DNA of 44,015 bases, from NCBI GenBank assembly GCA_030427205.1, contig JAUHXC010000011.1, positions 1 to 44,015 of the forward strand, read 5' to 3'. The position numbers and the translations under genes are program-made. The DNA is from a bacterium (GTDB lineage Bacteria > Myxococcota_A > Bradymonadia > UBA7976 > UBA1532). Every line of letters starts with the position of its first letter. Position 1 is the stretch's first letter. Positions 11,401-37,940 of the stretch are shown one piece after another. The notes below the pieces were generated by a model. It searched no databases, had not been told where the DNA came from, and worked only from the letters and a program-made list of their open reading frames with translations.

Positions 11401-12559
11401 GGGCGAGGTCGACGCAGGCGCCCTGCTCGCAGCGGCCGCCGGCGGCGGCGCAGTCCTGGCGGCTCTCTTCGTCGTGGGTGCACTGCGCTTCGCCGTCGAC
11501 GGCTTCGCAGGCGCCGGCGGGGGCGTAGGTCACCGCGTCGTCGCCCTCACAGGCGGCCGGCGGCGCCTCGGCGCAGGGGTCGTCGTCGCAGGCGCCGGCC
11601 AGCGCGGTCAGGGTGCCGGTCTGCTCGTCCTGGAAGCCGTTCTCCGAGCCGTCGAGGTCGCAGCGCAGCCAGCTCGCCCCGCCGTCGAGGCTGAAGCGGT
11701 AGCTCAGCGCGTAGACCCCGGGGGCCGGCGCGTCGACGGTGGCGAGGTACTGGTCGAAGCCGGGGGCGCCGGCCTCTTCGGCGCTCCAGGCGGGGTCGGC
11801 CTCGGCGCGGGCCCACATGGGGGCGTCGGCGCCTTCGGCCATCCAGCCGGCTTCGGCGACGAGGTCGAGGTCGGCGTCGACGCCGTCGGTCAGGTCGGTC
11901 AGGCCGGCCTCGAAGACGCGGCCGGCGAGGGTCACCGGGCTGCCGGCGAAGACCTCGATCTCCGCCGGGCCGGCGAAGATGCAGGCGTCGGCGACGACGT
12001 CGGCCACGCAGCCGCCATCCTGGCAGGTCTGGCGGGCCGGGCAGGCCTGCGCGCTGCCCTCGTAGCGGCACTCGGCGCTGCCGTCGACCACCTCGCAGGT
12101 GCCGTCGTCGCCGAATGTGACCACCTCGCCGTTCTCATTGCACGCGGGGCCCGGCGGGCTGTCGCAGACCACGTCGGCGCAGAGGTCGACGTCGGCGACA
12201 CAGGTATTGTTGTCGAGGTCGCAGGTCTCGCCGTCGTCGCACTCGGCGTCGTCGGTGCAGCAGCCTTCGATCGGCTCGACGACGCACTCGCCCTCGACGC
12301 AGCGGCCCTCGCCGCAGACGGCGTCGACGGCGCATTGCACGTCTTCGGTGCAGGGCGGCGGCCCGACGTCGGGTTCGGGGCCGGGGTCCATGTCCGGCTC
12401 GGGTCCGGGGGTGACGTCGGGCTCGGGCTCCGGCGTACCGTCGGTCTCCATGTCGACGACCGGGCCGGTATCGGCCGCGGTCCCATCGCCGTCGTCGCAG
12501 CCGGCGGCGACCATCATCAATCCGATGGTCGCCAGGGCCACCCACGCTCTGCGCTGCAT
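5426..12559 (-). CDS. Giant (2377 aa) surface lipoprotein with ~6 tandem modules. Each module is a Cys-rich segment (CxxNPC...C...C), a lamin-tail domain (LTD; ITEILYDP.G.D..EWIELYN) and a conserved ~120-aa beta-rich domain (AGYGPDGSDP...DEY.A.L..P.PG.YD.AFRFS.DGG.TW..CD).
   Basis: Lipoprotein signal MQRRAWVALATIGLMMVAAGC (lipobox) starts at the ATG at 12559, with an AGGGGG RBS 5 nt upstream. The ORF track's upstream extension to 12646 is less likely. The LTD motif repeats about 6 times. The long plus-strand ORF 6122..12628 is an antisense artefact. Confidence 0.85.
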   Translation of the reverse strand: MQRRAWVALATIGLMMVAAGCDDGDGTAADTGPVVDMETDGTPEPEPDVTPGPEPDMDPGPEPDVGPPPCTEDVQCAVDAVCGEGRCVEGECVVEPIEGCCTDDAECDDGETCDLDNNTCVADVDLCADVVCDSPPGPACNENGEVVTFGDDGTCEVVDGSAECRYEGSAQACPARQTCQDGGCVADVVADACIFAGPAEIEVFAGSPVTLAGRVFEAGLTDLTDGVDADLDLVAEAGWMAEGADAPMWARAEADPAWSAEEAGAPGFDQYLATVDAPAPGVYALSYRFSLDGGASWLRCDLDGSENGFQDEQTGTLTALAGACDDDPCAEAPPAACEGDDAVTYAPAGACEAVDGEAQCTHDEESRQDCAAAGGRCEQGACVDLAPNPGEGEVIITEILYDAVDPLSDGDAEWVELLNLADGPRYLGGCEVYDDGNVEVLAGGLIPAGGRIVLGHSADREVNGGVDVAATFEFRLGNDGDLFGIRCNGLDVDEVDYTQNGFVPVSGASLSLDPSVRDAGANDDGPGWCPAADGDVYFGEPGEAGAHRGTPGAANPACPPPSIDYCRLQFPEAVRAEEGTTFEVFGVLYEATWTDDTPEVDFIPGLIAEAGHGPDGSDPAGNADWQWVAGAGNPEWDGAARGEPDNDEYVAELTVPAPGDYDYAWRVSLDRGETWTYCDLGAGSEDGYQPRNAGQLEAIPVGGDLCDGFVCPPPPAPRCADDGVTIISPRDPGVCEAVDGQAQCNWPEDRLECPPGARCIDGECFVPAAPPAVGEAVITEFLYDATGDLADADGEWIELYNASDREVGLDGCTIGDDAGNTSALGAINVAPGGYVLLARNGDPAANGGLQAQGTFDFGLGNEGDRIALTCDGVEIDAVAYDVGGNFPAATAYSVSLDPDQTGAFTNDIGANWCRTLPVYFDAPGGDHHGTPGGPNPSCPTLTICTLLSPDEANVALGEDVESTALLVAAGITDRSRGVDADVRLRGGVGYGPAGSDPTQDRTWVWMVGQGDPENDAANADTYRATLADLPPGRYDVAWRFSADDGRSYAFCDREPGSINGYQPADAGHVVVGDPADPCLPNPCDEPPPSECRDADTEVAYAAVGACADEGGLPVCEYAEEITACPLGCADGACVRGEVRDPLPGDLVITEILYDPHDGLEDNTAEYFELYNASDAPLSMRTCVFADANNESPADDVEIEVGEYAVFARSADPAVNGGLENVRGVFDFGLNNTDDSLTVSCGGIIVDTVTYDERGGFPPVRGFSIQLRDGAVDPALNDDPASWCPSRTRYSVDPAQWGSPGAPNPPCDSEVDFCRLQFPSELQAEFETVQIVYGRIYEEGITDLSPLNDGTGLILAAVGYGPDGSLPMDNPEWVWTPGFPNADYDGAGGLGEPNNDEYRADVVMPIPGEYDLAFRFSVDGGRTWQVCDSGDAGSSDGYRVEDAGRLVVDPPANPCAPNPCVNPPVSVCDGNTAVTYPDVGVCGVDAIGLATCDYPEQREDCVDAQCVNGACGGARLPAPGEVIVSEILYDPHNGLDENFAEWIELYNTTDTPLSLDGCEIADSASGTPIAGVEIAARGYALFARVDDPILNGGLQEVDGTFDFSLTNGGDEVNLRCDGALIDTVNYDDGGAFPDARAASINLSSNRLDAQQNDLGRNWCLAEDPYIFDPEHLGTPRLPNRECPAGDPCDPNPCADAPAAFCEGDVAVSYGVTACEAVDGEPVCIPPEEIREDCGAAGCVDGLCDAAGARAPEPGDIVVNEIQRNTEGEIDEQAGEWFELINVSGELLDLAGCEVRDRANGLAVGDLLVPADAILLFARSLNPAANGGIAPDGIFNFSLNNGGDIVELRCGQTTIDAVDYALAGFPGNIPAVAYQLDPDFVDAELNDLGEAWCNATGAYFDGDPPHFGTPGQPNPSCGDNLGACDPNPCVDVPEDECLDATTVAAYHALGTCNIVDDAATCDYDFDLVDCGAIGQACAAGRCVSPDAIAGEGDVVFSEMLYDPQGVLAENQAEWIELTNTTDRDLVLDGCTMGLEGGASTRLTINLAAGGVALLARSADPEVNGGLQVAQTFDFALPNAAGRLNLYCGAALVDTFGYDDGFTFPDASAASISLDPDAYDFDANDEGINWCLGEVVYFADPGGDAALDHLGTPGLPNPQCPEVDVTVDDCRFNFPVVPTEWQAGGFNPPLEVTGLVFEAGITDRSPLVDLDGLLVAEGGYGPRGSDPAGNLDWSWTPAIDTPGYNGDDRGTPAYDEYTASFDPGQPVSGAYDMAFRFSVDGGRTWAYCDSDGLENGYSAEAAIDLDIVRDPCADVFCFDPPPAFCQDPTTVAFYGGDGQCVVGDDGQPTCEYRVNFTDNCADFDFVCVDDEFGAFCGEPM

Positions 12560-12697
12560 CCGTCCCCCTCGTTCGCGTCTCGGTGGTTCGCGTCGTATTG
12601 GTCGATTCACGCGCGGATGATGTGGTGACGGCGCGATGCGAGTCAAACGACGGGTCGGTGACGGACGCGAGGGCGCGCGGCGCCGCGCCGAACGGGG

Positions 12698-23055: not shown

Positions 23056-25707
23056 CTACTCGCCCGGCTGGTAGGTCGACAGCGCGCGGGTCAGATCGGG
23101 CGGCAGCCGGCCGTCGGCGGCGACCAGCGGCTGCACCCGCGGGCCGAGCAGCAGGCCAGCGGTCGGGCCATCGACCGGCACCCGGGCCACCGGCACGTAG
23201 GGCAGCGCCTCGAGCAGCGCCTCTTCGATCTTGCCGTAGAGCGCGCCCCGCGCCGTGGCGTCGGTCGTGGCGGACGCCTCGCCGATCCATGCGGTGATCT
23301 CGGTGCCGTCGACGCCCGGGCCACGCTCGACGAGCCGGGCCAGCGTGCGCAGGAAGGGCAGCGGATCGCCGCCGATGCGGCCATCGGCCACCTGCACGAA
23401 GACCGCGTCGAGCTGCCGATCGGCCAGCGTCGAGCGCAGCTGGTCGCGGCTGATGATGCTGAGCACGACCTTGAGCCCGATCGCCCGCAGCTGCGAGGCG
23501 AGCACCCCGGCCACCGCCTGGTCGCCTTCGATGGTGCCGAGCAGCAGCGGCGCGGTGGAGTCCACCTCGGCCATCAGCGCCCGGGCCCGATCGAGGTCGT
23601 AGGCCAGGGCGTCGGCATCGGCAGCGAAGCCGAGCTGGCCCGCTTCGAGGATGCGGTGCTGGGGCTCGACCGCCCGGGCCAGCGCGCCGGCCAGCTTCGC
23701 CCGATCGAGGGCCAGCGCGATGGCGCGGCGGACGCGGGCGTCGCTCTGGGGTCCATCGCCGAGGAAGAGCAAGCCGTAGTGAGCCATGGCGCCGGCGTCG
23801 ACCAGCGGCGCCGCCCGCACCCGATCGGACGCCGCCTTCAGCGCCGGCTGCATCGCGCGCGGATCGGCGAACACCTCGGCCGCCAGCGGCACCCGGGCCA
23901 GATCGAGGCGTTCGGCGCTCACCGCCGCCAGCGCCGCCGCGGCGCTCTCGACGCGGTCGATGTTGAGCACGGCCGGGCCGGCGGTGTTCTTCCAGCGACC
24001 CTCGGCGGCGCGGACGAGGCGGTATTCGCCGTCGTGCGGCGCCGATTCGAAGCGGAAGGCGCCGCTGCCCACCGGGCGATTGAAGCGCCGCGGGTCGTCG
24101 CACTCGTCGATGCCGGCGGGCAGCAGCCGCACCGCGCCGAGCGGGTGCACCGCGTAGGCCCTCGGCCGGGTATAGACCACCTCGACGCCGCCGGTGGGCA
24201 GCGCGGTGACCGACCGCACCCCATCGTCGGCGAGGCCGGTGGTGAAGCGGCGGGCGTACTCGATCGACCACGCCAGATCGGCGTCGGCGGCCGGGCGGCC
24301 GCCTTCGACGCAGGGGTGATCGTGAAAGTGCACGCCCTCGGCCAGCGAGACCTGCACCCGGGTGCCGTCGGGGGCCGCCGTCCAGCGGCCCACCGCGCCG
24401 GGGGCCGGGTTGCCGTCGGGCTTGATGCGAACCAGCCGCTCGACGACGAGGTCGATGACCATCGAGGAGGCGCTGTCGGTCGCGGGGTAGGTCTCGAGGA
24501 TGCCGCGGTCGGTCGTCCAGCCCATGGTCAGCTCGAGCGGGCCGGCGGGCGCGGGCGCTGCGGGCGGCGCGGTGGGCTGGGGCCCGGGCGCGGCGGTCTC
24601 GGGCGCGACGCTCGGGGCCGGCACCGGCTCGGGGGCGCGCACGAACATCGCATACAGCGCGCCGAGGCAGCCGGCGAGCAGCACGCCCACCACCCCGAAG
24701 AGCAGCCAGTTGGTGCGCTGCTCCTGGCTCATCGGCGGCGGCGCTTCTTCTTCGGTGCCGTGGCTGATGATCGCGGTGGCGAAGACCGGCGTATCGTCGC
24801 CGCCGGGCCGCCGCACGATCGGCGCGCTGACCGCGCCGCTGAACGGCGCGATCGCCGCCCGCATGGCGCCCGCGTGCACGTAGCGATCGGAGGGTTTCTT
24901 GGCCAGCGACTTGTGGATCACCGCCTGCAGCCCCTCGGGCGCCACGTCGGCGTCGGGCGGGGTCGCGTCGCGGTGCTGCTGCATGATCGCGATGGCGCTC
25001 TTGCCGGTGAACGGCAGCCGACCCTGGATCAAACGGAAGAGCAGCACGCCCACCGCGTAGATGTCGGTCGCCGGGCCGATCTCCTTCTGGTCGATCTGCT
25101 CGGGCGCCATGTACGTCGGCGTGCCCAGGGTCAGGCCCATGCGGGTGATGCGCTTGCCCTGGGCGTCCTCCTCGAGGATGCGGGCGATGCCGAAGTCGAG
25201 CACCCGCACCGTCTCGCGGCCGTCGGGGCCGAGCACGAGCATGATGTTCGACGGGTTGATGTCGCGGTGCACGATGCCGCGGCCGTGGGCGTCCTGCAGC
25301 GCCTGCAATATCTGGGTGCACAGCTCGATGGCCCGAGCCACCGTCACCGCGCCCTCGCCGTCGAGCAGCTGCTGCAGCGAGCGCCCGTGGATGAGCTCCT
25401 GCACGATGAAGACGATGCCGTCGGGCTCTTCGCCGCAGTCGAGCAGCCGCACCGCGTAGGGGGTGTCCATCTGGGCCATGACCCGGGCTTCGCGCATGAA
25501 GCGCGCCCGGCTGGCCTCGGCGCTCTCGGCGTCGGTCAGCTGCGGGTGCAGCACCTTCACCGCCACCTCGCGGTCGGCGATGCGGGCGCGATAGACCGCG
25601 CCGAACGTGCCCTTGGCCAGGGGGGCCTGGATGATATAGCGCCCGCCCAGGGCCCGCCCGATGAGCGGATCGCTTTCGACGTTGGGGTCGTCCGGCGGCG
25701 TCACCAC
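23056..25707 (-). CDS. Ser/Thr protein kinase (catalytically competent: [23 protein letters not shown]) - TM helix - extracytoplasmic solute-binding protein family 5 (peptide/nickel SBP-like) domain.
   Basis: All Hanks kinase motifs intact in the N-terminal 290 aa. A single TM helix ([23 protein letters not shown]) follows. The C-terminal ~480 aa show the SBP_bac_5 pattern (MGWTTD...ETYPATD..., [15 protein letters not shown]). GTG start at 25707. Confidence 0.75.
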
Positions 25708-26691: not shown

Positions 26692-26824
26692 CGGGACCCC
26701 CGTGAGGTGAAGCGAATGCCGGCATTGTGGTGGCCCCGCCCCGGCGGTGGCAAGGGGCCCGACCGCAGCGCGCCCCATGGTAGATTGTCACCCGCCGATA
26801 CGACGCCGCGCCCGCTGGAGCCCG

Positions 26825-27742
26825 ATGAACCGCATCTCCGACATCGAGATCTTCGTCGCCATCGTGGCCGACGGCAGCTTCACCGCCGCCGCGCGGCGCC
26901 TGGGCGTCAGCAAGTCCCACGTCAGCCGCCAGATACAGGCCCTCGAAGACCGCCTCGGCGCCCGGCTGCTCGACCGCACGACCCGCACCGTGCGGCCCAC
27001 GGACGCCGGGCTCGAGTTCAATACCCGGGCGCTGAAGGTGCTCGCAGAGCTCGACGAGGCCGAGCGGGCGGTGCGCGACCTGCAGAGCGAGCCGCGGGGG
27101 GTCCTGCGCGTCGGGGCGCCGGTCTCGTTCGGGCTGCGCTACGTGGCCCCCGCGGTGGCGTCCTTCATGAGCCGCTGGCCCGAGCTGCGGGTCGAGGCGT
27201 CCTACAGCGACGAGCGGGTGGACGTCATCGGCGACGGCTTCGACGTCGTGGTGCGCATCGGCCAGCTCGCCGACTCGAGCCTCATCGTGCGCCGGCTGGC
27301 CCGCACCCGGGCCCACATCGTCGGCAGCCCGGCCTACTTCGACCGCCATGGCGCACCCGAGACCCCCGATGCGCTCGCCGACCACGCCTGCCTGCGCTAC
27401 GCGCATCAGCTCAGCGGACACGGCTGGACCCTTTGGGGCCCCGACGGCGAGCGCACCGTGCGTATCGACGGGCCGCTGCTCGCCGACAACGGCGACGCGC
27501 TGCTCGTCGCCGCCTGCGCGGGCCTCGGGCTGGCCTACATGCCCGACTTCTTCGTCGGCGAAGACGTCGCCTCGGGCGCGCTGCGCACCGCCCTCGACGA
27601 CTGGACCACCCGCGAGGTGCCGGTGGCCGCGCTCTACCCCCACAACCGCCACCTCTCGGCCAAGGTCCGGCTGTTCGTCGACCACCTCGCCGAGACGCTG
27701 CGCGCCCGGCCCTGGCGCCGCGACGCCGAGGGGCAGGCGTGA
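26825..27742 (+). CDS. LysR-family transcriptional regulator, divergently oriented to the nitrilase gene.
   Basis: N-terminal wHTH FVAIVADGSFTAAARRLGVSKSHVSRQIQALEDRLGARLLDRTTR is a canonical LysR signature, and a LysR substrate-binding domain follows. Classic divergent arrangement with its probable target. Confidence 0.85.
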   Translation: MNRISDIEIFVAIVADGSFTAAARRLGVSKSHVSRQIQALEDRLGARLLDRTTRTVRPTDAGLEFNTRALKVLAELDEAERAVRDLQSEPRGVLRVGAPVSFGLRYVAPAVASFMSRWPELRVEASYSDERVDVIGDGFDVVVRIGQLADSSLIVRRLARTRAHIVGSPAYFDRHGAPETPDALADHACLRYAHQLSGHGWTLWGPDGERTVRIDGPLLADNGDALLVAACAGLGLAYMPDFFVGEDVASGALRTALDDWTTREVPVAALYPHNRHLSAKVRLFVDHLAETLRARPWRRDAEGQA

Positions 27743-27961
27743 TTTTCTGGAGCGTATTTCCGCTTTGCTTTCGCGCAGTTGATTCTTCGACGAGATTTTT
27801 TCTCCGACCGGGGAACTAAATCGGGCGGCGCCTCGTTTCACCCACCGAGACGACGGAGCACCTCCTTCCCCCAGCAACTCCCCCGCTCCGCAGTCTCACG
27901 GGTGATTCACACCCGGCCCGACCCCGTTGCTCCCCCGACGCGGTCAGGCCGAATCACCCCG

Positions 27962-28025
27962 CCCGGGTCCGGTCTCACTGCTCTCTCCCCCTCCCGAGCC
28001 AGACCGGACCCGGGTCCCCTTTTCT
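27962..28025 (+). terminator. Perfect 14-bp inverted repeat CCCGGGTCCGGTCT / AGACCGGACCCGGG with a 25-nt C/U-rich loop, followed by TCCCCTTTTCTCC. An intrinsic-terminator-like element, or the 3' end of a small RNA.
   Basis: Read directly. Sits 220 bp downstream of the lysR-like stop, in a 540-bp non-coding gap. Confidence 0.35.
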
Positions 28026-28034
28026 CCTCCCCTC

Positions 28035-28074
28035 TTCGACAGACGCCCGCAGTCTTTCGACAGACGTCCGCACT
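28035..28074 (+). promoter_or_regulatory. Two 19-bp direct repeats TTCGACAGACG[C/T]CCGCA[G/C]T phased 21 bp apart; candidate binding site for a dimeric regulator ~200 bp upstream of the giant TPR gene. A possible extended -10 (TGGTATATG) lies at ~28168.
   Basis: Direct repeats read directly. Two-helical-turn phasing is typical of response-regulator or tandem-dimer sites. Confidence 0.3.
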
Positions 28075-28281
28075 CGCCGGCGCGCGTGGTGCGCCCGCGA
28101 TGCCCATCGACACCGGGTCGACCGGCGCAGCGCGAGGCACATGGAGCACCTTCCCTTTTTGCCGCTGGCCGCCCATGGTATATGCTGCCGTCGAGCCCGT
28201 CCGGGGCCTCGATCCCGACGACTCTGAAACCGCTCACCCGACGGTCGATGCGCCGCTCCGAAATGGCGCGGAGCGTCGGCC

Positions 28282-31200
28282 ATGACCCGCTCGGATCGCA
28301 TGCCCACACCCCGCGATACGATGACCCTGCGACTCGGTGAGCCGTCGCGGATCGATCCGCCCGACGCGCGCTTCTGGGTGCAGCACTGCGCGCAGCTGCA
28401 GCGGCGGGCGGCGGGCATGCGGGCGTCGGTCGAGCAGGCGCGGCTCCACGGGCAGCGGGCGTATGTGCTCGACGAGATGCTCGATGACCGCGCGGCGGCC
28501 GAAGAGGCGTGGAAGGCGGCGCTCGTGGCCCAGCCGGGTTATCTGCCCGCGCTGCTCGCCCTGCGCGATCGGGCCCTGGAGAGCGACGCCCGCAGCCTCG
28601 CCGAGACCCTGGCCGACGTGCACCTGCCGGCGCTGGCCGACAGCGAAGACGTCGACCGGCGGGACATCGCCGAGCTCGCGGCCTTCTTCGGGCTGATCTG
28701 GCTCTTCCGCTGGCCCGACGCCGACCGCGCCGCCCACGCGCTGCTGCGGCTCGAGGCGGTGGGCGATCCGCTGGGGCTGGCCGAGCGGCTGCTGCACCTG
28801 TGCCTCGACGGCGCCGGGCAGGTGACCCGGTGGCGGGCGCGCGCCGAGCGACTCGAAGGGCCCGAGCGCGCCGCGCTGCTCGCCGAGCTCGGCCGGCACC
28901 TCGTCGACGACCCCGACGTGGCCGCCGAGGGCTGGCAGCTGCTCGCCGAGGCCGCCGGGGCCGACCCTGTCGCCGGCTGGTATCGCGTCGAGCAGGCGCT
29001 GGTCATGGGCGAACCCAGCGCGTTGGCCCGGGCGCTCGAGACCCTCGCGGGCCTCTGCGAAGGGGTCGGGGCGGCCATCCTGCGATTCCTCGCCGCCGAG
29101 ATCTGGGAGCTGGTGCTGGGCCAGGTCGACAAGGCCGAAGCGCTCTACGCGCAGGTCACCGGCGGCGGCCTGCGGGCGGCCATCGCGCTCAAGCAGATCG
29201 TCAGCGACGCCCGCCAGTTCTCCGACGACCCGCTCGGCATGTCGGCCAGCCTGGCCGAGCAGGCCGACAGCATCGGCGACGCGCGCCTCGAGGCGGTGCT
29301 CTACCTGCGCGCGGCCCAGCTCGCCGCGGTGGCCAACGACAGCGCGAGGGCGCGCGACGCGGCCGGCGCGGCGCTCGAGCGCTGGCCGGAGGACGACCGC
29401 GCGCGCCATCTGGTCGAACGCATCGTCTGGCAGGCCGCCGAGTGGCACGACCTGCGGGCCCTCATCAACCGCGCCGCCGGCGGCGACATCGCCCGGCTGC
29501 TGCGGGCGGCCATCCTCGAGCACGCCGTGCAGGAGCCGGCCAGCGCCCTCGGCGCGCTCGGATCGGCGACCAGCGAGGCCCCCGAGCTGCTGCACCTGCG
29601 CACGCGGCAGCGGCTCTCGCAGCACCTCGTGGCCGGCGACGACCTGCGCGAAGCCGAGGCCCGGGTGCGGGCGTGGCAATACGAGGCCAACCTGCTCGAC
29701 GCCAGCGACCGACGGGCCGAGCTGTACCTGCGCATCGCCCGCTTCTATCTGGCCCATACGGCGCAGCACGAGAAGGCGCTGACCTACCTCTTCTGGGCCC
29801 TCGATCGCGACCCGAAGAACCTCACCGTGCTGCGCATCATCGAGCACTGCTGCCGCCAGACCGGCCGCCAAGGTCCGCTGGTGAAGGCGCTCGACCAGAC
29901 CGTCGAGCTGCTCGACCGCCCCGCCGACCGCTTCCCGCTGCGCCGTGAGCTGGCCGAGATCCAGGCCGCCGCGGGCGCGCCGACCGATACCCTCGTCGAC
30001 CTCTACCGGGCCGCGCTCGCCGAAGAGCCGACCGACGCCAGCACCCAGGCCGACCTCGAGCGGCTCTATCGCCACGCCCGGCGCCACGACGACCTCAAGG
30101 GCCTCTACGAGCAGATGCTGCGCAGCGCCGACGGCCCCGAGGCGCGGGCCTCGGTCGCGGTGCGCTTCGGCCCGCTGCTCGTCGAGCAGTTCGACGACGC
30201 GGTGGCCGCGCTGCGGCTCTACGACCGGGTCATGCCCGATACCCCCGACGGCCCGCTGCGCTCGCGGCTGGAGATGCTGCAGACCGAAGCCGCCGCCGCC
30301 GGTGGGCTCTCCGGCAGCCTGCCGGCGCTCAACACCGTCGAGATCGAAGCCCTCGAGCGCTCCTCGATGGACTTCGACTTCGGCGAGGCCGACATCGACG
30401 AGCTGCTGACGGTGGTCTCCGACCCCCGGGCCGAGTCCGATCCGGGCGAGATCGCGCCGCCGCCGCTGCCGCCGCTGCTGCCGATGGCGCCCACCGAGGT
30501 CGACAGCAAGATCCGCAGCCCGCTGCCCACCGACGAGGTCCGCGCCGCCGACGCCGTGCGGCCGGCCGATCGACCCTCGGGGCGCACCGGCCTGCTCGAC
30601 TCGGGCCGGGCCGCGGTGCCGCCGCCGCTCGACGTCGACGACGAGATCGAGTTCTTCGAATTCGAGGTGGACGAAGACGACGCCGAGCTGAACGGCTCGG
30701 TCGAGCTCTCGCCCGAAGACCTCGCCGAGGCCGGCCCGCCGCCGCCGGCGCCCATCACCGACCGCACGACCGGCTTCCTCGGCGCCGAGCGCGCCGGCGA
30801 GGGCAAGCGCGACCGCAGCCGGGCGGTCATCGCCCGCAAGCTGCGCCGCAGCCGCAACAAGCAGCCCACCGACGAGTTCGCCGACTTCGGCGAGCCGTCG
30901 CTGGTCGAAGCGGTCGAGATGTACGGCGCCGCCGAAGACTTCGATACCCGGCTGCGGGCCGTCGCCGAGCTGGCCCGGCGCTACGAGGCCGCCGGCCGAC
31001 CGCTCGAAGCCATCCGCGCGTGGCGCACCGTGCTCGGCTTCCGGGCCGGTGACGGCGAGGCCATCCGCCACCTCGAGCAGCTCTACCGCAGCACCGAAGA
31101 CTGGCGCGGGCTGGTGGAGATATTGGCCGGCGAGGCCACCCGCACCGGCGACCGGGCCCGGCGGCAGGCGCTGCTCTTGGAGGTCGCCCGGCTCGAATGG

Positions 31201-34200
31201 CGGGCGCTGGAAGACGCCGGGGCCGCGGTCAACCACTTCCTCGAAGCCCTCGACCTGGGCGTCGTCGACCGCGAGACCATCGCCGAGCTCGCCGGCGCGG
31301 TGCGCGCGGTCAAGCGCTGGCCGGCCTACGTCGACGCGCTGGCCCGGGCCGGCCTCGACGACCCGGCGCACATGAGCCCCGAGGGCGCCATCGACCTCGG
31401 CCGGGTCCACCTCTACGAGCTCAGCGACCCGGCGCGGGCGGTGCCCTACCTCGTCACCGCGGCGCGGGCGCTGCCCGAGCGGGTCGACATCGCCGCCGAC
31501 CTGGCCGAAGCCCGGGCGGGCCTGGGCGAGGTCGACCGGGCGGTGGCGCTCTTGACCCGGGCGATCCAGGCGGCCGTCGACCTCGGCCCCGACGCGCGCA
31601 ACGTGCTGCGCCTGCGCCTCGCCCGACTGTACGAAGAGCACGCCGCCGACAGCCGGGGCGCCTTGCACGTCTACCGCGACGCGCTGGCCGAGGGGCTGTC
31701 CGACCCGGCGGTACTCGACCGCGTCGACCACCTGGCCACCGCCGCCGAGGACTGGCACACCCTCGCCGCCGTGCTCGAGCGCAACCTCGAAGAGGCCCGC
31801 GGCGGCGACCCCGAAGAGGTGCGCCCGATCGCCATCCGCCAGGGCCAGCTGCTGCTCAAGCGCCTCGAGCGCCCGCGAGAGGCCGCCACCGCCTTCGTCG
31901 AAGCCTACGTGCTCGACCCGGCCGACGAAGGCGTCTTCCGGCTCGTCGAGGGCATCCTGCGCAAGCACCCCGACCCGGCGCTGCAGGCGCGGCTCTACGC
32001 CGCCTGGCTCGACGGCGGCGAGCGCAGCCTCAAAGAGCGGCTGACGATGTCGCTGCGGCTGGTGGCGGCCCACGAGGCCGAAGGCCGGCTCGACGCGGCC
32101 GCCGAAGTGCTCGAAGAGCTGCGGGCGCGCATGCCGAACGACGGCGAAGTGCTCGCCGCGCTCGAGCGGGTCTACCAGAAGGCCGGCCGCTGGGACGAGC
32201 TGGTGCAGATGTACCACCAGGCCCTCGACACCACCGGCGACCCCCAGATCCGGGGGCGCCAGCTGCGGCGGCTGGCGCGAGCGTACGAGGTCGGCCTGCG
32301 CGACCTGCCCCGGGCCACCGAGGTCTACCAGACGCTCTTCGCCGAGCAGCCCGACGATACGACCACCCTCAAGGCGCTCGCCCGACTGCTCGAAGGCCAG
32401 AAGCGCTGGGACGAGCTGCTCGAGATCAGCACCCGCGAGCTGGCGCTGACCGACAAGCCGCGGCAGAAGGCGTTCATCCACTTCCGCATGGGCAGCCTGC
32501 ACGAGTCGCAGCTCGGCGATCACGCGGCGGCCGGCGCGGCGTACCACCGCGCGCTGGAGCTCGACCCGCGCTGCTTCCCGGCGCTGCACGGCCTGCGCGA
32601 GCTGGCGGCCAACGCCGGCGACTGGCCGACGGTGGTCGCCCACCTCGGCCGCGAGCTCGAGCTGTGGGACGAACCCAAGGAGCGCGCGGCGGTGCTCTCG
32701 CGCATCGGCGAGATCTACGAGCGCCAGCTCGACGACACCGCCGAGGCCGACGCCCACTACGCCCGGGCGCTCGATACCCACGCCGGCTGCATCCCCGCCG
32801 CCCGGGCCCTCGCCCGCCGCGCGTGGCAGGCCGGCGACTGGGAGGCCGCCGCGCCGCACCTGCAGGTGCTCACCAACCAGAACCTCGACAAGCTGCCCCG
32901 CTCGACGTCGAGCAAGCTCTTCTATCGGCGCGGCGTCGTCGCCCGCAACCTGGGCCGGCAGCTCGAGGCCATCGAGAGCCTCAAGCTCGCGCTGGAGTTC
33001 GACGGCAGCAACGCCGAGGCGCTGCACGCGCTGGTCGAGACCTACGCCGGCCAGGGGACCGACGACGACGGGCTCTCGGCGCTGCTCAAGCAGCTCGCCG
33101 AGAACCGCGCGACCCACGTCGAAGCCGGGCGCATGGACGAGGTGGCCCGCATCGACGTGCTCTCGGGGCTCGCCGCCGAGCATCAGCTGCGCCTCGACGA
33201 CGCGGAGGACGCCTACCGCCGCGCCTGCGAGGCCCGCCCCGACGACCCCGACGTGCTGCGGCCGCTGATCGAGCTGCTGCTCAAGCGCCGCCTGTGGAGC
33301 GACGCCACCGCCGCGCTGCGCACCTTCGCCGACCGCTTCTTCGACGCCGCCCTCGACCGGGCCGACGCGCGGGCCGCCTGGGTCGACGCCACCTTCTGGG
33401 AGGGCGAGATCTGGTCCGACATGGCCGTCGACCCGGCCCGGGCCATCGCCTGCTACGCCGCGGTGCTCGCCGTCGACCCCGACAACCGCGAGGCCCGCTA
33501 CCGCACCGCGCAGTGCCACTACCTGATGGGCGTCTTCGACGAAGCCGCCGAGATCGTCGACGAGCTGCTGACCCACGGCGGGCTGCCCGCCGGCGAGCGG
33601 GCGCGCTACACCTTCTATCGGGGGCGTATCGAGCAGGTCGGGCTGCACGACGAGGGCGCCGCCCGCGCGCTCTACGCCGAGGCGCTGCAGGTCGACCGCC
33701 ACTGCGCCCGGGCGCTCATCGCCCTCGGCCGCAGCCTGCTCGACGCCGACGAGACCGACGGCGTCGTCGACCTGCTGCGCGAGCATCAGGCCCTCATCGA
33801 GGCCCCCGACGACGGCGACCCCGACCTGGCGGCGCTCAAGACCTTCGCCGCCGGCGTCTGGCACCGCCACGGGCAGAGCGACGTGGCCTTGCGCCTGCTC
33901 ACGCCGCTGGCCCAGGGCATCACCGCCGGCGCCCGCGACGCCCGCTTCTGCCTCGCCCGGGTGCACGAGAGCCGCGGCGGGTTCGACGCCGCCGCCGCCC
34001 AGCTCGAGCGGACCCTGGCCGACGACGTCTGCGACATCGCCGCGCTGCGGGCCCTCGCCGGGCTGCGCATGCGCCAGGGCGACGACGAGCGCGCGCTGTG
34101 GGTGCTGTCGGTGCTCGAGCTCTACGGCGCGCTGAACCCCGACGAGCGGGTGACGTGGGGCACCCTGCGCGACCGCAACCGCAAGCAGCGCGACCGCGGG

Positions 34201-35004
34201 GGCCACACCCTCGCCGACGGCGTCTTGGAGCGGGTGATGCTGCACCCGTCGTTCAAGAGCCCGCTGGTCACGCTGATGGCGTTGTGCGCCGACGACCGCC
34301 CCATCCGGCCGCCGCCCACGCTGCGCCGCGCCGAGCGGGTCAACGGCCAGCGGCACACCTTCACCCTCGAGCTCGAGGCGGTGCAGAGCCTGCTCGGCTA
34401 TCGCGACTTCGACCTCTACTTCATCGGCGACCACCCCGAGCTGGTGGCGCTGTGGCCCGCCGAGCCGCCGTTGATGGTGCTCGGCGCGCCGGCGCTCGGC
34501 GACCGCTGCACCACCGCCGAGCGCCGGTTTCTGGTGGGCCGGGCGGCGTTCTACGGCAAAGCCGGGCTGACTCGACTGCACGACGCCGGCCCCGAGCAGG
34601 CCCTCGACCGCATCGCCCGGGTCGGCGGCCTCGTCAGCCGCCGGGCCGACCTCGATCGCCGCACCGACCCGCTGCTCGCCGGCCTGCCCGACCGCGCCAT
34701 CGACACCATCGCCGAGCTGGTGCAGCGGGTGGGTGAGCACACCCTGCCGCCGCTCTACACCGGCGAGCAGGCGTTGACCGGCGTCGCGTGCACCGCCGAC
34801 CGCGCGGGCCTGCTGGCGAGCGGGTCCTTGCGGGCCGCCGTCGAGATGCTCACCCGCCACGCGGGGGTCGGCGAGACCATCGAGCGCGGCGACGACCTCG
34901 GCTGGGCGGTGCGCAGCGGGTCGCGGCTGCGCGACCTGGTCAAGTATGCTCTCTCCGACGCGTTCACCGAGCTCCGCGCCGAAGCGGGCCTCGGGATCTC
35001 GTAG
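28282..35004 (+). CDS. Giant (2240 aa) tetratricopeptide-repeat (TPR) protein with a central acidic/Pro-rich low-complexity region (aa ~690-860).
   Basis: Dozens of TPR-like 34-aa units (e.g. AYHRALELDPRCFPALHGLRELAANAGDW; ADAHYARALDTHAGCIPAARALARRAW). The minus-strand ORF 28234..35019 is an antisense artefact. Confidence 0.8.
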   Translation: MTRSDRMPTPRDTMTLRLGEPSRIDPPDARFWVQHCAQLQRRAAGMRASVEQARLHGQRAYVLDEMLDDRAAAEEAWKAALVAQPGYLPALLALRDRALESDARSLAETLADVHLPALADSEDVDRRDIAELAAFFGLIWLFRWPDADRAAHALLRLEAVGDPLGLAERLLHLCLDGAGQVTRWRARAERLEGPERAALLAELGRHLVDDPDVAAEGWQLLAEAAGADPVAGWYRVEQALVMGEPSALARALETLAGLCEGVGAAILRFLAAEIWELVLGQVDKAEALYAQVTGGGLRAAIALKQIVSDARQFSDDPLGMSASLAEQADSIGDARLEAVLYLRAAQLAAVANDSARARDAAGAALERWPEDDRARHLVERIVWQAAEWHDLRALINRAAGGDIARLLRAAILEHAVQEPASALGALGSATSEAPELLHLRTRQRLSQHLVAGDDLREAEARVRAWQYEANLLDASDRRAELYLRIARFYLAHTAQHEKALTYLFWALDRDPKNLTVLRIIEHCCRQTGRQGPLVKALDQTVELLDRPADRFPLRRELAEIQAAAGAPTDTLVDLYRAALAEEPTDASTQADLERLYRHARRHDDLKGLYEQMLRSADGPEARASVAVRFGPLLVEQFDDAVAALRLYDRVMPDTPDGPLRSRLEMLQTEAAAAGGLSGSLPALNTVEIEALERSSMDFDFGEADIDELLTVVSDPRAESDPGEIAPPPLPPLLPMAPTEVDSKIRSPLPTDEVRAADAVRPADRPSGRTGLLDSGRAAVPPPLDVDDEIEFFEFEVDEDDAELNGSVELSPEDLAEAGPPPPAPITDRTTGFLGAERAGEGKRDRSRAVIARKLRRSRNKQPTDEFADFGEPSLVEAVEMYGAAEDFDTRLRAVAELARRYEAAGRPLEAIRAWRTVLGFRAGDGEAIRHLEQLYRSTEDWRGLVEILAGEATRTGDRARRQALLLEVARLEWRALEDAGAAVNHFLEALDLGVVDRETIAELAGAVRAVKRWPAYVDALARAGLDDPAHMSPEGAIDLGRVHLYELSDPARAVPYLVTAARALPERVDIAADLAEARAGLGEVDRAVALLTRAIQAAVDLGPDARNVLRLRLARLYEEHAADSRGALHVYRDALAEGLSDPAVLDRVDHLATAAEDWHTLAAVLERNLEEARGGDPEEVRPIAIRQGQLLLKRLERPREAATAFVEAYVLDPADEGVFRLVEGILRKHPDPALQARLYAAWLDGGERSLKERLTMSLRLVAAHEAEGRLDAAAEVLEELRARMPNDGEVLAALERVYQKAGRWDELVQMYHQALDTTGDPQIRGRQLRRLARAYEVGLRDLPRATEVYQTLFAEQPDDTTTLKALARLLEGQKRWDELLEISTRELALTDKPRQKAFIHFRMGSLHESQLGDHAAAGAAYHRALELDPRCFPALHGLRELAANAGDWPTVVAHLGRELELWDEPKERAAVLSRIGEIYERQLDDTAEADAHYARALDTHAGCIPAARALARRAWQAGDWEAAAPHLQVLTNQNLDKLPRSTSSKLFYRRGVVARNLGRQLEAIESLKLALEFDGSNAEALHALVETYAGQGTDDDGLSALLKQLAENRATHVEAGRMDEVARIDVLSGLAAEHQLRLDDAEDAYRRACEARPDDPDVLRPLIELLLKRRLWSDATAALRTFADRFFDAALDRADARAAWVDATFWEGEIWSDMAVDPARAIACYAAVLAVDPDNREARYRTAQCHYLMGVFDEAAEIVDELLTHGGLPAGERARYTFYRGRIEQVGLHDEGAARALYAEALQVDRHCARALIALGRSLLDADETDGVVDLLREHQALIEAPDDGDPDLAALKTFAAGVWHRHGQSDVALRLLTPLAQGITAGARDARFCLARVHESRGGFDAAAAQLERTLADDVCDIAALRALAGLRMRQGDDERALWVLSVLELYGALNPDERVTWGTLRDRNRKQRDRGGHTLADGVLERVMLHPSFKSPLVTLMALCADDRPIRPPPTLRRAERVNGQRHTFTLELEAVQSLLGYRDFDLYFIGDHPELVALWPAEPPLMVLGAPALGDRCTTAERRFLVGRAAFYGKAGLTRLHDAGPEQALDRIARVGGLVSRRADLDRRTDPLLAGLPDRAIDTIAELVQRVGEHTLPPLYTGEQALTGVACTADRAGLLASGSLRAAVEMLTRHAGVGETIERGDDLGWAVRSGSRLRDLVKYALSDAFTELRAEAGLGIS

Positions 35005-35042
35005 GCGCAATCGGTACACGGACCCACAGACCGGCGAGCGGT

Positions 35043-35855
35043 ATGTCCAAGAAGTTCTCCCTGGGTGCCAATACGGTCGAAGACGTCACCTTCCTCAAGG
35101 TCAGCGGCGTCGTCGACGAGGACAACACCCTCGCCAAGAGCCTCAAGAAGATCGACGGCCGCACCGTGGTCATCGACCTCAGCGGGGTCGAGCGCATCAA
35201 CAGCTGCGGGGTGCGCGACTGGGTCAACTGGCTCAACGACCTCGACGCCAAGGGCAAGCGGGTCGTGCTGGTGCGCTGCAGCCCGTGCATCGTCAATCAG
35301 GTCAACCTGGTCAACAACTTCGTCGGGCGCGGCCGGGTGAAGAGCTTCTTCGCCCCCTACTTCTGCCCGCGCTGCGACACCGAGCAGCTCAAGCTCCTGC
35401 AGGTCGAAGACTTCGCCGGTATGGACCGCCCGCGGGCCCCCGACGTGCGCGGCGACGGCTGTCAGCAGGCCCGCTGCGAGATGGAGTTCGACGACCTCGA
35501 GGCGGCCTACTTCGCCTTCCTGCCGCGCAATACCGGCCAGGTGGTCGACACCGGCCTCAAGAGCCTGCTCGACGACCTCAGCCCTTCGATCCGCGACCGC
35601 ATCAAGCGGCTCGACAGCGTGCAGCAGAACGCCGACCCGGAGAAGACGCCCATCAGCGGCATGTACAGCCCGCTGACCGTCACCCGGACCCAGCTGAGCA
35701 TCAACAAAGGCGGCGCGCCGGCCGACGAGGCGCCCGAAGCGCAGACCGAGCAGGTGCGCACCCGCAGCAGCCTGGGCGTGATCCTGACCGCCGCGGCGCT
35801 GCTGCTCGTCGGCGGGCTCATCGCCTACGTCGTATTCTTCATCGGGGGGGGCTGA
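35043..35855 (+). CDS. STAS-domain (anti-sigma-factor antagonist-like) protein fused to a 4-Cys zinc-ribbon (CPRC...CQQARC) and a C-terminal TM anchor.
   Basis: STAS signature VVIDLSGVERINSCGVRDWVNWLNDL. Cys pairs in the CxxC...CxxC arrangement. C-terminal hydrophobic helix LGVILTAAALLLVGGLIAYVVFFIGG. The ORF track's upstream extension is rejected; ATG at 35043. Confidence 0.65.
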   Translation: MSKKFSLGANTVEDVTFLKVSGVVDEDNTLAKSLKKIDGRTVVIDLSGVERINSCGVRDWVNWLNDLDAKGKRVVLVRCSPCIVNQVNLVNNFVGRGRVKSFFAPYFCPRCDTEQLKLLQVEDFAGMDRPRAPDVRGDGCQQARCEMEFDDLEAAYFAFLPRNTGQVVDTGLKSLLDDLSPSIRDRIKRLDSVQQNADPEKTPISGMYSPLTVTRTQLSINKGGAPADEAPEAQTEQVRTRSSLGVILTAAALLLVGGLIAYVVFFIGGG

Positions 35856-35856
35856 G

Positions 35857-36372
35857 GTGGCCGACGATACGCTCGACCGCATCCGCGACGTGGGCGCGGT
35901 GTTCATCGACCCCTGGGTCGCCGTCGACCGCAGCGGCGAGGTGGTCGACTTCAACCCGCACTTCCGGGCCCTGCACAACCGACAGAACGCCCGCAAGCTG
36001 CAGGGCAGCCCGCTGTCGACCTACGTGCACCTCGACCTGCCCGTCGACCCCGTCGCGCAGTGCCTCGAAGAGGGCAAGCCGGTGCGCTACGACGAGATCC
36101 AGGTCACCATCGAAGGCGAAGAGGCCGCCCGGCCGTTCATCATCAGCGCCGCGCCCGTCGGCAGCGGCCACGTGCTGCTGCTGCTGCGCGACGTCTCCGA
36201 CGCCGCCGCCGTGCAGCGCAAATACAAGACGATGCTCGACCGCGAGACCAAGGAGAAAGAGCGCCTGCAGGACGAGATCGGCCGCAAGACCAAAGAGCTC
36301 GTCGACACCAACATGGAGCTCAACCGCACCCAGAAAGAGCTGATGCGGTTCAAGAAGGGGCTCTTCGGCTGA
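35857..36372 (+). CDS. Small PAS-like sensor domain protein with a C-terminal coiled coil.
   Basis: PAS-like fold pattern (GAVFIDPWVAVDRSGEVVDFNPHFRAL...); charged heptad-rich tail. GTG start 1 nt after the upstream stop, and its stop overlaps the next start (TGATG). Confidence 0.5.
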   Translation: MADDTLDRIRDVGAVFIDPWVAVDRSGEVVDFNPHFRALHNRQNARKLQGSPLSTYVHLDLPVDPVAQCLEEGKPVRYDEIQVTIEGEEAARPFIISAAPVGSGHVLLLLRDVSDAAAVQRKYKTMLDRETKEKERLQDEIGRKTKELVDTNMELNRTQKELMRFKKGLFG

Positions 36373-37940
36373 TGCTCAAGTCGCTCAACAGCCTGCCCAT
36401 CAGCTTCAAGCTGATGATCACCACGACGCTGCTCCTGCTCTTCACCGTGGGCCTCTATGGCGCGATGAACGTGCAGAACCTGGGCGCGGCCTACGACGAC
36501 TCCCGCCGCGACCAGGAGGAGCTGACCCTGCAGGCGGCGACCCAGAGCGCGCGCAACGTCACCACCCTGCTCGCGTTCTCCGCCCGCTCGTTCATCGCCG
36601 CGACCGCCTACGGCGACATCCAGAACCTGCTCGACACCCTCACCGAAGACGACCCGCGGCTGGTCTACGCCCGGGTGTACGACGGCGACACCCCGGTGGC
36701 CACCCAGGGCGACCCCGACAAGGCGCTGGCCAATACCCAGCGCTTCGCCGACGCCCGGGTCGAGACCACCAAAGGCGTCGAGGTGCTCACCCGCGACGGC
36801 GAGCTGCACATGGTGCGGGTCGAGGTGCCCTTCGAAGGCGCCGAGGGCAAGGTGGAGATCGGCCGCTCGATCGCCGAGATCAACGAGCACAACGCGCGCA
36901 TCCGCGAGGCCACCGCCAAGAGCCGCAAGGCGGCGACCATCAACGCGCTGTTCGTCGGCGGCATGATCATCCTGCTCGGGGTGGTGCTCAACATCCTGCA
37001 GGCCCTGCGCATCAGCCGGCCCATCCGCGAGCTGACCGACAGCGTCGAGCGCATCGCCCACGGCGACCTCGGCGAGCGGGCGGTGGTCGACAGCACCGAC
37101 GAGATCGGCGTGCTCGGGCGCAACTTCAACTACATGGCCGAGCGGCTCGGCATCCTCATCAAAGAGACCGAAGAGCGGGCGACCTACGAGAAGGAGATGG
37201 AGGTCGCCCGCATCATCCAGGAGTCGCTGCTGCCGCCCAACCGGCTGATCACCCGCGGCGACTTCCAGTTCGCCGGCTTCTTCAAGAGCGCGAGCATCTG
37301 CGGCGGCGACTGGTGGAACTTCGCCGAGATCAGCGACGGCCGGCTCTTGCTGCTCATCGGCGACGTGACCGGCCACGGCGTCTCGTCGGCGATGATCACC
37401 GCCGCCGCCAAGTCGTGCTGCGATACCCTGCGCCACGTCACCGAAGGCGAGCTGACGGTCACCTTCCTGCTCGAAGAGCTCAACAAGACCATCTACGAGG
37501 CCGCCAACCGCCGCTTCGTGATGACCTTCTTCGCCACCATCATCGACCCCGCCGAGCGCACGCTGACCTTCAGCAACGCCGGCCACAACTTCCCGCTGCT
37601 CTTCCGGGCCAACCCCGCCGACGGCGAGCCGGCCATCGTGCCGCTCATCACCCGCGGCAACCGGCTGGGCGACGTGATGGACAGCCGCTTCCTCGAGCGC
37701 ACCGTGCCCTACGGCAAGGACGACGTCATCGTCTGGTACACCGACGGCATCACCGAGGGCCTGGGCAAGACCGGCGACGAGTACGGCGAGAAGCGCTTCC
37801 GGCGCAGCATCCGCTCGGCCCTCGACCGCCCCGCCGACCAGATCCTCGACAAGATCCTGGGCGACGCCGAGGCCTACTTCGCCGACTTCGCGCACCCCGA
37901 GGACGACATCACCCTCGTCGTGGGCCGCTTCACCGGCTGA
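36372..37940 (+). CDS. Membrane sensor Ser/Thr phosphatase of the PP2C/SpoIIE (RsbU-like) family: TM - periplasmic domain - TM - HAMP - PP2C.
   Basis: HAMP (ISRPIRELTDSVERIAHGDLGERAVVDSTDEIGVLGRNFNYMAERL) and SpoIIE/PP2C motifs (GGDWW, GDVTGHGVSSAM, YTDGITE, DDITLVVGRF). The ORF track's upstream extension is rejected; ATG at 36372. Confidence 0.8.
   Translation: MLKSLNSLPISFKLMITTTLLLLFTVGLYGAMNVQNLGAAYDDSRRDQEELTLQAATQSARNVTTLLAFSARSFIAATAYGDIQNLLDTLTEDDPRLVYARVYDGDTPVATQGDPDKALANTQRFADARVETTKGVEVLTRDGELHMVRVEVPFEGAEGKVEIGRSIAEINEHNARIREATAKSRKAATINALFVGGMIILLGVVLNILQALRISRPIRELTDSVERIAHGDLGERAVVDSTDEIGVLGRNFNYMAERLGILIKETEERATYEKEMEVARIIQESLLPPNRLITRGDFQFAGFFKSASICGGDWWNFAEISDGRLLLLIGDVTGHGVSSAMITAAAKSCCDTLRHVTEGELTVTFLLEELNKTIYEAANRRFVMTFFATIIDPAERTLTFSNAGHNFPLLFRANPADGEPAIVPLITRGNRLGDVMDSRFLERTVPYGKDDVIVWYTDGITEGLGKTGDEYGEKRFRRSIRSALDRPADQILDKILGDAEAYFADFAHPEDDITLVVGRFTG

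Follow-up and report, generated by a model that had tools for sequence, protein, structure and literature searches.

C-rich loops are regarded as signatures of small RNAs that occlude ribosome-binding sites, including cuckoo/CcsR and the C-rich small RNAs of staphylococci (PMC4615179). Expression of cuckoo/CcsR is under the control of RpoHI/HII in Rhodobacter, and the RNAs of this family are proposed to act by such occlusion (PMC4615179), and the loops of the actinobacterial 6C RNA bind multiple mRNA targets directly (PMC6486639). In enterobacteria, MicA, RybB and MicL constitute the repressor arm of the extracytoplasmic function (ECF)/sigma-E regulon, and promoters of the ECF type are recognized by AAC at -35 and CGT or CGTT at -10 (PMC8103513). 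Among myxobacteria, Pxr is a 108-nt RNA expressed from a sigma-54 promoter beside the NtrC-like gene pxrR (PMC5568312), and an invariant 8-bp segment of its SL3 stem is needed for accumulation (PMC5684412). Here, we analyzed positions 1 to 44,015 of contig JAUHXC010000011.1 (assembly GCA_030427205.1; this whole stretch of 44 kb is referred to as the window, with + strand numbering), and in particular the 540-bp gap at 27743-28281 between a gene for a LysR-family regulator and that of a 2240-aa TPR protein, which a first-pass annotation had singled out. The gap appears to hold an independently transcribed + strand small RNA gene of about 180 nt (~27843-28023), which is new to description.

Homologous loci were fetched via homologues of the TPR protein and of the LysR protein, and one more was obtained by a genome pattern scan. 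Together they provided 10 distinct versions of the element, namely those of the window, L001, L005, L010, L013, L014, L015, L017, L018 and L019, hereafter the homologues. The parts of the predicted gene in the window are as follows.

27843..28023, + strand: small RNA gene of ~180 nt (5' end predicted; 3' end at the U-tract)
27796..27801, + strand: T-tract and possible UP-like element, 11-16 nt ahead of the -35 element (TTTT at this place in 10/10 homologues, nearby bases variable)
27812..27816, + strand: GGAAC, -35 element of a putative ECF-sigma-type promoter (GGAA(C/G) invariant in 10 homologues)
27834..27839, + strand: CGTTTC, -10 element of the same putative promoter (invariant in 10/10 homologues)
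27847..27897, + strand: stem-loop 1 (SL1), with a 25-nt C-rich loop at 27860-27884 that contains CACCUCCUU and the invariant CCUUCCCCCAGCAA (from single folds of each homologue)
27900..27959, + strand: stem-loop 2 (SL2), a long interrupted stem with the apical loop CUCCCC at 27930-27935 (from compensatory changes)
27961..28015, + strand: stem-loop 3 (SL3), the hairpin reported in the first-pass annotation, a terminator stem with a 25-nt loop that contains CUCUCCCCCUCCC (from the inverted repeat and its conservation)
28016..28027, + strand: U-tract CCCCUUUUCUCC behind the terminator stem (a run of 3-6 T here in all homologues)

The gap is bordered by the end of the LysR-family open reading frame (ORF) at 27742 and the start of the TPR ORF at 28282. 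In a plot of G+C by codon position, the third-position bias was strong until about 27740 and back from about 28310, with none between, in agreement with the non-coding character that had been assigned to the gap. The CU-rich tracts and the motifs resembling the anti-Shine-Dalgarno sequence described there were likewise found: GC skew ranged from -0.31 to -0.43 over 100-nt windows spanning 27800-28049, so that the + strand is strongly C-rich, and both CCUCC and CCCCC were seen within the tracts. The G+C content of the window is 73%, and its best protein matches were metagenome-assembled genomes labelled only "bacterium" or "Myxococcales bacterium".

The perfect hairpin lies exactly where it had been placed: its arms (27962-27975 and 28001-28014) are 14 nt each and 100% complementary, with 25 nt between them, and are followed by TCCCCTTTTCTCC, a tail also read as TCCCCTTTT. 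When the gap was shuffled 300 times with its dinucleotides preserved, the longest perfect inverted repeat (loop of at most 40 nt) averaged 7.3 bp and never exceeded 11 bp. A simple terminator scan missed this hairpin because it permits only loops of 3-8 nt. All homologues keep the intrinsic terminator, with a GC-rich stem of 14-15 bp and a U-tract, although the 25-nt loop is atypically long. The 12-bp core of the stem, CCGGGUCCGGUC / GACCGGACCCGG (27963-27974 / 28002-28013), is identical in 10/10 homologues; it recurred neither in the window nor in the loci, had no match in viral contigs, and is thus not a dispersed repeat.

Folding of the hairpin region, which the first-pass annotation had proposed as a check, resulted in three stem-loops. 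The RNA of 27843-28026 reached a minimum free energy (MFE) of -89.1 kcal/mol with z = -9.0, the MFE structure representing 42% of the ensemble, and the opposite (-) strand gave z = -4.7. When folded singly, 10/10 homologues adopted the same three adjacent hairpins. RNAalifold on a plain MAFFT alignment of the 10 sequences recovered only SL3 and the tip of SL2, since MAFFT misaligned the two clades in SL1 and SL2; therefore, a covariance model was built from the seven closer sequences on the fold of the window, and the structure was resolved through single-sequence folds together with the covariance-model alignment. The model yielded one match per locus in 10 loci (75-194 bits); the TPR loci L003, L007, L008 and L009 gave none, and the window showed no second copy.

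In the model-fitted alignment, 94% of cells were paired, and 19 of the 50 pairs had changed on both sides, compared to 10.6 +/- 1.8 in shuffles, none of which (0/500) was as high; sliding the 3' partner by 1-3 columns as a control lowered pairing to 31-49%. As this alignment had been fitted to the model, the count was repeated on a MAFFT-only alignment of the seven closer sequences, where 12 double-change pairs were observed vs. 6.1 +/- 1.6 in shuffles (0/500), with 93.6% of cells paired. At the level of individual helices, helix 1 was 92.6% paired, with three pairs changed on both sides and a loop of 24-26 nt among homologues, while compensatory changes affected 7/8 pairs of the outer helix and 5/8 of the middle helix of SL2 in the model-fitted alignment, and 5/9 and 4/13 pairs in the MAFFT-only alignment. 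Cells with G-U outnumbered those with A-C by 30 to 5, which identifies the C-rich + strand as the strand under structural selection and as the transcribed one. A coding reading was excluded because single-nucleotide indels occur inside conserved loops of homologues and the third-position GC bias is absent.

The loops behave differently from the stems: the stems covary and the loops hold invariant C-rich sequence. The invariant or near-invariant loop sequences are CCUUCCCCCAGCAA in SL1, UUGCUCCCCCGA at the tip of SL2 and CUCU-CUCCCCCUCCC in SL3; the 14-nt motif of SL1 is invariant in 10/10 homologues and UUGCUCCCCCGA nearly so, and 10/10 have the anti-Shine-Dalgarno core CCUCC in their SL3 loop. 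The SL1 loop of the window reads CACCUCCUU, which would match the usual 3' tail of bacterial 16S rRNA.

Upstream of the structured region, 10/10 homologues carry one of two forms of an ECF-type motif, GGAAC-N17-CGTT or GGAAG-N18-CGTT. The spacer of 17-18 nt between GGAA(C/G) and CGTTTC diverges in sequence among the 10 homologues, and conserved hexamers around a diverging spacer are a classic promoter footprint. With AAC at -35 and CGT(T) at -10, the motif of the RNA gene matches the ECF hallmark at sequence level. The full motif occurred once in the window, vs. 0.08 occurrences expected, and in each locus it was found solely at the RNA gene. Transcription would be expected to start a few nucleotides past the -10 element, at ~27843-27846. 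A simple promoter scan detected no sigma-70 promoter in 27000-29000, and no sigma-54 promoter (GG-N10-GC) was seen on reading by eye. Sigma-70 readings of GGAACTAAAT and TGGTATATG were considered and dropped, as key positions were missing or the spacing was wrong. A TTG lying ~33 nt ahead of the -35 element GGAAC is kept in most homologues (27776-27781 in the window and equivalent positions elsewhere) and could serve as a regulator site or as a further promoter element.

Alignment of the gap with its closest relatives revealed two conserved islands in an otherwise unalignable sequence. Island 1 (~27796-28026) is 83-89% identical to relatives, compared to 75-85% for the adjacent coding sequence, while the LysR-proximal spacer and the spacer with the direct repeats are 36-46% and 50-61% identical, respectively. 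Island 2 (28150-28185, ahead of the TPR gene) reaches 83-95% identity. Polarity of the element is constant: T-tract, GGAA(C/G), 17/18-nt spacer, CGTTTC, structured region and U-tract follow each other in this order in every copy, including the inverted ones. The hairpin, the loops and the upstream promoter are thus present in 10 homologues with covariation, and the anti-Shine-Dalgarno-like motifs fall in single-stranded loops, which substantiates the earlier suggestion that the hairpin is the terminator of an independent small RNA. On this comparative evidence, the element is a structured non-coding gene that stands alone, carries promoter-like and terminator-like signals and is under purifying selection.

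So far, the family has been encountered in few genomes. A pattern scan with the three loop motifs across 185,579 species-representative genomes returned one true match, L010, and a scan of a metagenome collection with two loop motifs returned two matches, both due to chance and inside unrelated sequence. The JGI copy L014 was missed by the latter scan because its SL2 has GUCG instead of GUUG. No match to the RNA motifs was detected in viral contigs.

The surroundings of the RNA gene, relevant for what it may control, include the following features of the window.

26747..27742, + strand: LysR-family regulator gene (its start lies 26 codons before that of a database homologue)
28282..35004, + strand: gene of the 2240-aa TPR protein, a neighbour outside the RNA unit and first in a TPR / STAS-like / PAS / HAMP-SpoIIE cluster
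28035..28075, + strand: window-specific 21-bp tandem duplication comprising two 20-nt copies (18/20 positions identical), outside the RNA gene
28150..28185, + strand: conserved promoter-like block of the TPR operon, CTTCCCTTTTTGCC-N13-CATGGTATATGC (83-95% identical in relatives, flanks poorly conserved)

Among the neighbours of the RNA gene, LysR is the most constant (9/10 distinct homologues), yet co-orientation is not universal. The order LysR, RNA element, TPR gene is found in the window, L001, L013, L014 and L015. In L005, which lacks LysR, the element is flanked by a divergent CN-hydrolase gene and by the TPR gene. In L010 (metagenome-assembled genome GCA_030426085.1, contig 3), the element follows LysR and stands ahead of a lipase-maturation-factor gene, and the TPR operon of the same genome is on the separate contig 22 (L003), without an RNA copy. 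Finally, in L017-L019, the element is inverted with respect to LysR, its terminator pointing towards the 3' end of LysR, and it is not adjacent to any homologue of the TPR operon. Since the element is intact without LysR, with the TPR operon elsewhere and when inverted, it represents an independent unit rather than a TPR leader. GCA_041390045.1 contains two diverged paralogous pairs of LysR and small RNA genes (L017, 3948-4129; L018, 4001-4187), both followed by DHquinase-II and EF-P genes. In L018, a Roadblock/LC7-like 118-aa gene comes directly after the small RNA, and in L017 an extra 406-aa gene precedes a 118-aa gene.

These arrangements bear on several alternative explanations. A cis-acting leader, attenuator or riboswitch for the downstream TPR operon would fit the position of the element upstream of, and co-oriented with, the TPR gene in the window, L001, L005, L013, L014 and L015, as well as the terminator-like hairpin at its end. 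However, the L010 copy precedes a different gene, the copies of L017-L019 are convergent with LysR and have no gene downstream, the TPR loci L003, L007, L008 and L009 lack a copy, a separate conserved promoter-like block stands between the element and the TPR gene, and no cis-regulatory family of Rfam matches. The loss of linkage largely refutes this reading, which we consider very improbable, and the proposal of a riboregulator dedicated to the TPR gene is not supported: the two are unlinked in L010/L003, the element is inverted without TPR in L017-L019, and it is missing at four TPR loci. Even less probable is that the hairpin is the terminator or 3' untranslated region of LysR, and any RNA a fragment derived from it. 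Adjacency to LysR in 9/10 distinct homologues speaks for this idea, but the hairpin is 220 nt past the LysR stop codon, the element persists without LysR (L005), is on the opposite strand in L017-L019 and has its own conserved promoter, and the spacer between stop codon and promoter is only 36-46% identical among relatives. Further, a small GC-rich hairpin at 27723-27749, followed by GATTTTCTGG, overlaps the LysR stop codon and is probably the terminator of LysR itself, which argues against that role for the large hairpin 220 nt farther 3'. The poorest candidate, to which we give hardly any credit, would be a MITE- or REP-like mobile or repetitive element (i.e., a miniature inverted-repeat transposable element or a repetitive extragenic palindrome) or the remnant of a degraded gene. 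Its strong palindrome, skewed composition and changes of orientation between genomes recall such elements, but each locus has a single copy and the 44-kb window contains no second one, no terminal inverted repeats or target duplications were found, the neighbourhood is constant (beside a LysR or CN-hydrolase gene), the helices are maintained by compensatory changes, viral contigs gave no match and no coding signal was detected.

With respect to function, we favour, as the probable account, a ~180-nt gene for a stress-sigma-controlled, trans-acting repressor RNA of the anti-Shine-Dalgarno type, the mechanistic part being modelled on 6C, on cuckoo/CcsR and the staphylococcal RNAs, and on the sigma-E-dependent small RNAs. 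An ECF sigma factor would switch the gene on under some stress, the RNA would act in trans by pairing its exposed C-rich loops with G-rich or Shine-Dalgarno regions of mRNAs, and this pairing would block translation initiation, by analogy with 6C, RsaE/RNAIII and cuckoo/CcsR. Several points weigh against this account. Expression itself, the 5' end and the dependence on a sigma factor are all predictions from sequence, the window ORFs that were scanned against Pfam included no ECF sigma gene, and the family is known from only ~8 genomes or metagenome bins, with 1/185,579 representatives matched. The 44-kb window offered no convincing target site: RNAduplex runs of the three loops against it returned only the RNA's own antisense and GC-driven noise, duplex energies being uninformative because the window is 73% GC, and exact complements of the loop motifs had no other site there. 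The terminator loop is unusually large (25 nt), with only 4-6 U behind the stem, and the full sequence invariance of this stem exceeds what a pure base-pairing model would predict. The helix sequence itself may thus be recognized beyond its pairing, conceivably by a protein.

That last point also speaks for a different view of a real RNA, as a protein-binding or sponge RNA whose C-rich loops (three or four) and invariant terminator hairpin bind a poly(C)-binding, KH-type or ProQ/FinO-type protein, with no mRNA pairing. The 12-bp core of the terminator is invariant in 10/10 homologues while the other stems covary freely, similar C-rich motifs recur in every loop, and in Pxr the invariant 8-bp segment of SL3 is required for accumulation (PMC5684412). 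Nevertheless, no candidate binding protein is linked to the RNA gene in any locus, the anti-Shine-Dalgarno core in the loop motifs fits RNA-RNA pairing, and a chaperone or stability factor on the terminator would be compatible with the base-pairing model; we regard this view as unlikely. About the same modest chance is given to a more far-reaching possibility, namely that the RNA is an ECF-controlled mimic of the ribosome's anti-Shine-Dalgarno tail that globally damps Shine-Dalgarno-dependent translation initiation in stress, and/or titrates a dedicated RNA-binding protein that reads the invariant terminator helix. The presence of CACCUCCUU in the SL1 loop of the window and of CCUCC in the SL3 loop of every homologue bears on this idea. 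If true, either role would make the RNA a master regulator specific to its lineage, a Myxococcota-like clade that is uncultured.

The remainder of the gap, between the small RNA gene and the TPR gene, had been proposed to contain an enhancer-like site formed by two 19-bp direct repeats. The repeats are real and offset by 21 nt as reported, but each copy is 20 nt long (28035-28054 and 28056-28075, 18/20 identical) rather than 19, and the consensus as written had 17 nt. Tandem Repeats Finder did not report this 2-copy repeat, nor did it find a repeat array. A third, inverted copy of the repeat motif CTCGACCGACGCCCGCA, with two mismatches, is located at 28418-28434 (-), in the 5' end of the TPR coding region, and is probably a chance match. 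It is improbable, in our judgement, that the repeats form a response-regulator or enhancer-binding-protein site that controls the TPR operon in this genome. The 18/20 match, the 21-bp phase equivalent to two helical turns, the three occurrences of the motif in the window (at most three mismatches; 0.56 expected) and the location ~100 bp upstream of the TPR promoter-like block would suit such a site. On the other side, the repeats are absent from every orthologous spacer and TPR upstream region compared, they lie in the least conserved part of the gap (50-61% identity, effectively unalignable), and no sigma-54 promoter (GG-N10-GC) is evident downstream on reading by eye. The simplest origin is a lineage-specific head-to-tail 21-bp duplication in a fast-evolving spacer. 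Phylogenetic footprinting, suggested in the first-pass annotation for the direct repeats, did not retain them; the hairpin is conserved in relatives.

The TPR gene is preceded by its own conserved sequence. GGTATATG is found upstream of it in 9/10 TPR loci, including loci without the RNA gene, and in the more distant L007 and L008, CTTGAAC replaces CTTCCCT in the promoter-like block. Judging from its conservation, the block at 28150-28185 probably serves the TPR operon itself as promoter or operator; it fits neither sigma-70 nor sigma-54 consensus spacing well. The TGGTATATG box, previously noted as an extended -10-like element, is at 28176-28184 as described and within this block, conserved at 9/10 TPR loci, and the earlier reading of the box is broadly supported. 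The TPR 5' leader, which makes up the last part of the gap, is poorly conserved.

Further observations were made on the surrounding genes. The order TPR, STAS-like, PAS, HAMP-SpoIIE (PP2C) phosphatase is constant in the window (28282-37940) and in L001, L003, L005, L007, L008 and L009, and this partner-switching-type signalling cluster is kept even where the TPR protein has 46% amino-acid identity. The gene at 23056-25707 (-) encodes a fusion of a Ser/Thr protein kinase with a family-5 extracellular solute-binding domain, which also adjoins the CN-hydrolase/LysR pair in L001, L005, L015, L018 and L019. The 2406-aa ORF at 5426-12646 (-) encodes an unusually large LTD-repeat protein with six lamin-tail domains (PF00932, E = 6.6e-68).

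As to known RNA families, no Rfam match to any part of the window reached its gathering threshold, a search of the region at E<=10 gave only spurious miRNA and CC2171 matches, and none of five homologous loci reached the gathering score of any family. Readings as a retron, a CRISPR or a tRNA were set aside, as no Rfam family (tRNAs included) was found in the window, there was no repeat array, and no reverse-transcriptase gene was present among the scanned ORFs. A permissive-threshold Rfam scan of six copies (window, L013, L014, L017, L018 and L019) produced the following matches of the L019 copy, all below gathering.

mmgR/suhB: 24.4 bits (gathering 41)
6C: 24.4 bits (gathering 47)
Atu_C10: 20.5 bits (gathering 60)
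ar14/cuckoo: 18 bits (gathering 58.8)

All of these sub-threshold matches belong to the class of C-rich-loop small RNAs. The RNA described here resembles the C-rich-loop families in kind and belongs to none of them, and would thus constitute a new small RNA family of a known mechanistic kind.

One close parallel is cuckoo/CcsR/ar14 (RF02344) of Alphaproteobacteria, which consists of 2-4 adjacent hairpins with variable stems and C-rich anti-Shine-Dalgarno-like loops (PMC4615179). The RNA of the window conforms to this plan, with three adjacent hairpins, variable stems and no multiloop in 10/10 homologues, and its ECF-type motif suggests a stress-sigma control comparable to that known for cuckoo/CcsR. 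However, the loop motif CCUCCUCCC that defines cuckoo in each hairpin has no exact occurrence here, where the loops read CCUCCUUCCCCC, CUCCCC and CCCCCUCCC instead, and the window copy had no match to RF02344 at E<=10, that of L019 being below gathering. It also differs from cuckoo in belonging to another phylum, in its ECF-like promoter, in being single-copy and in having one C-rich loop inside the terminator hairpin. The 6C RNA (RF01066) of Actinobacteria shares a high-GC genome and stem-loops with loop runs of at least 5-6 C, but it has two hairpins, is shorter and comes from an unrelated lineage, there is no sequence homology and the window copy did not match. MmgR/suhB (RF00519, Alphaproteobacteria), the best sub-threshold Rfam match, aligns through a single-stranded UCCUCCC that is followed by a GC-rich terminator hairpin and a U-tract; this match was obtained only with L019 of the six copies and covers only the 3' half of the RNA, a likeness of class that is not evidence of homology.

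Two further systems are comparable in organization. MicA, RybB and MicL likewise come from stand-alone small RNA genes that begin at an ECF-type promoter and end at an intrinsic terminator, the sigma dependence being predicted here from the motif. They share no sequence or structure similarity with the RNA of the window and employ 5' seed regions and Hfq instead of C-rich loops. Pxr, from Myxococcus xanthus and other Cystobacterineae, resembles it in its myxobacterial or myxobacterial-like lineage, in three predicted stem-loops, in a location downstream of a regulator gene and in an invariant third-stem segment amid variable surroundings (PMC5684412, PMC5568312). Compared by description, not by sequence, the RNA of the window differs from Pxr in its length of ~180 nt, its ECF-type promoter without GG-N10-GC and its LysR-type neighbour. 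Pxr was the only myxobacterial regulatory RNA found in the literature searched, to which the present RNA adds a second, covariation-supported small RNA family, from a lineage known from metagenomes only and so far from a handful of uncultured Myxococcota-like genomes. The annotation of the seemingly "empty" 540-bp gap is corrected accordingly, the direct repeats being a recent duplication without conserved function, and the covariance model together with the promoter motif GGAAC-N17-CGTT provides a means to search for the cognate ECF regulon and for targets of the RNA. C-rich anti-Shine-Dalgarno loops on variable stems, known in Actinobacteria (6C), Firmicutes (RsaE/RNAIII) and Alphaproteobacteria (cuckoo/CcsR, MmgR), are now found in another phylum, and the recurrence of this design argues for convergent evolution in GC-rich genomes.

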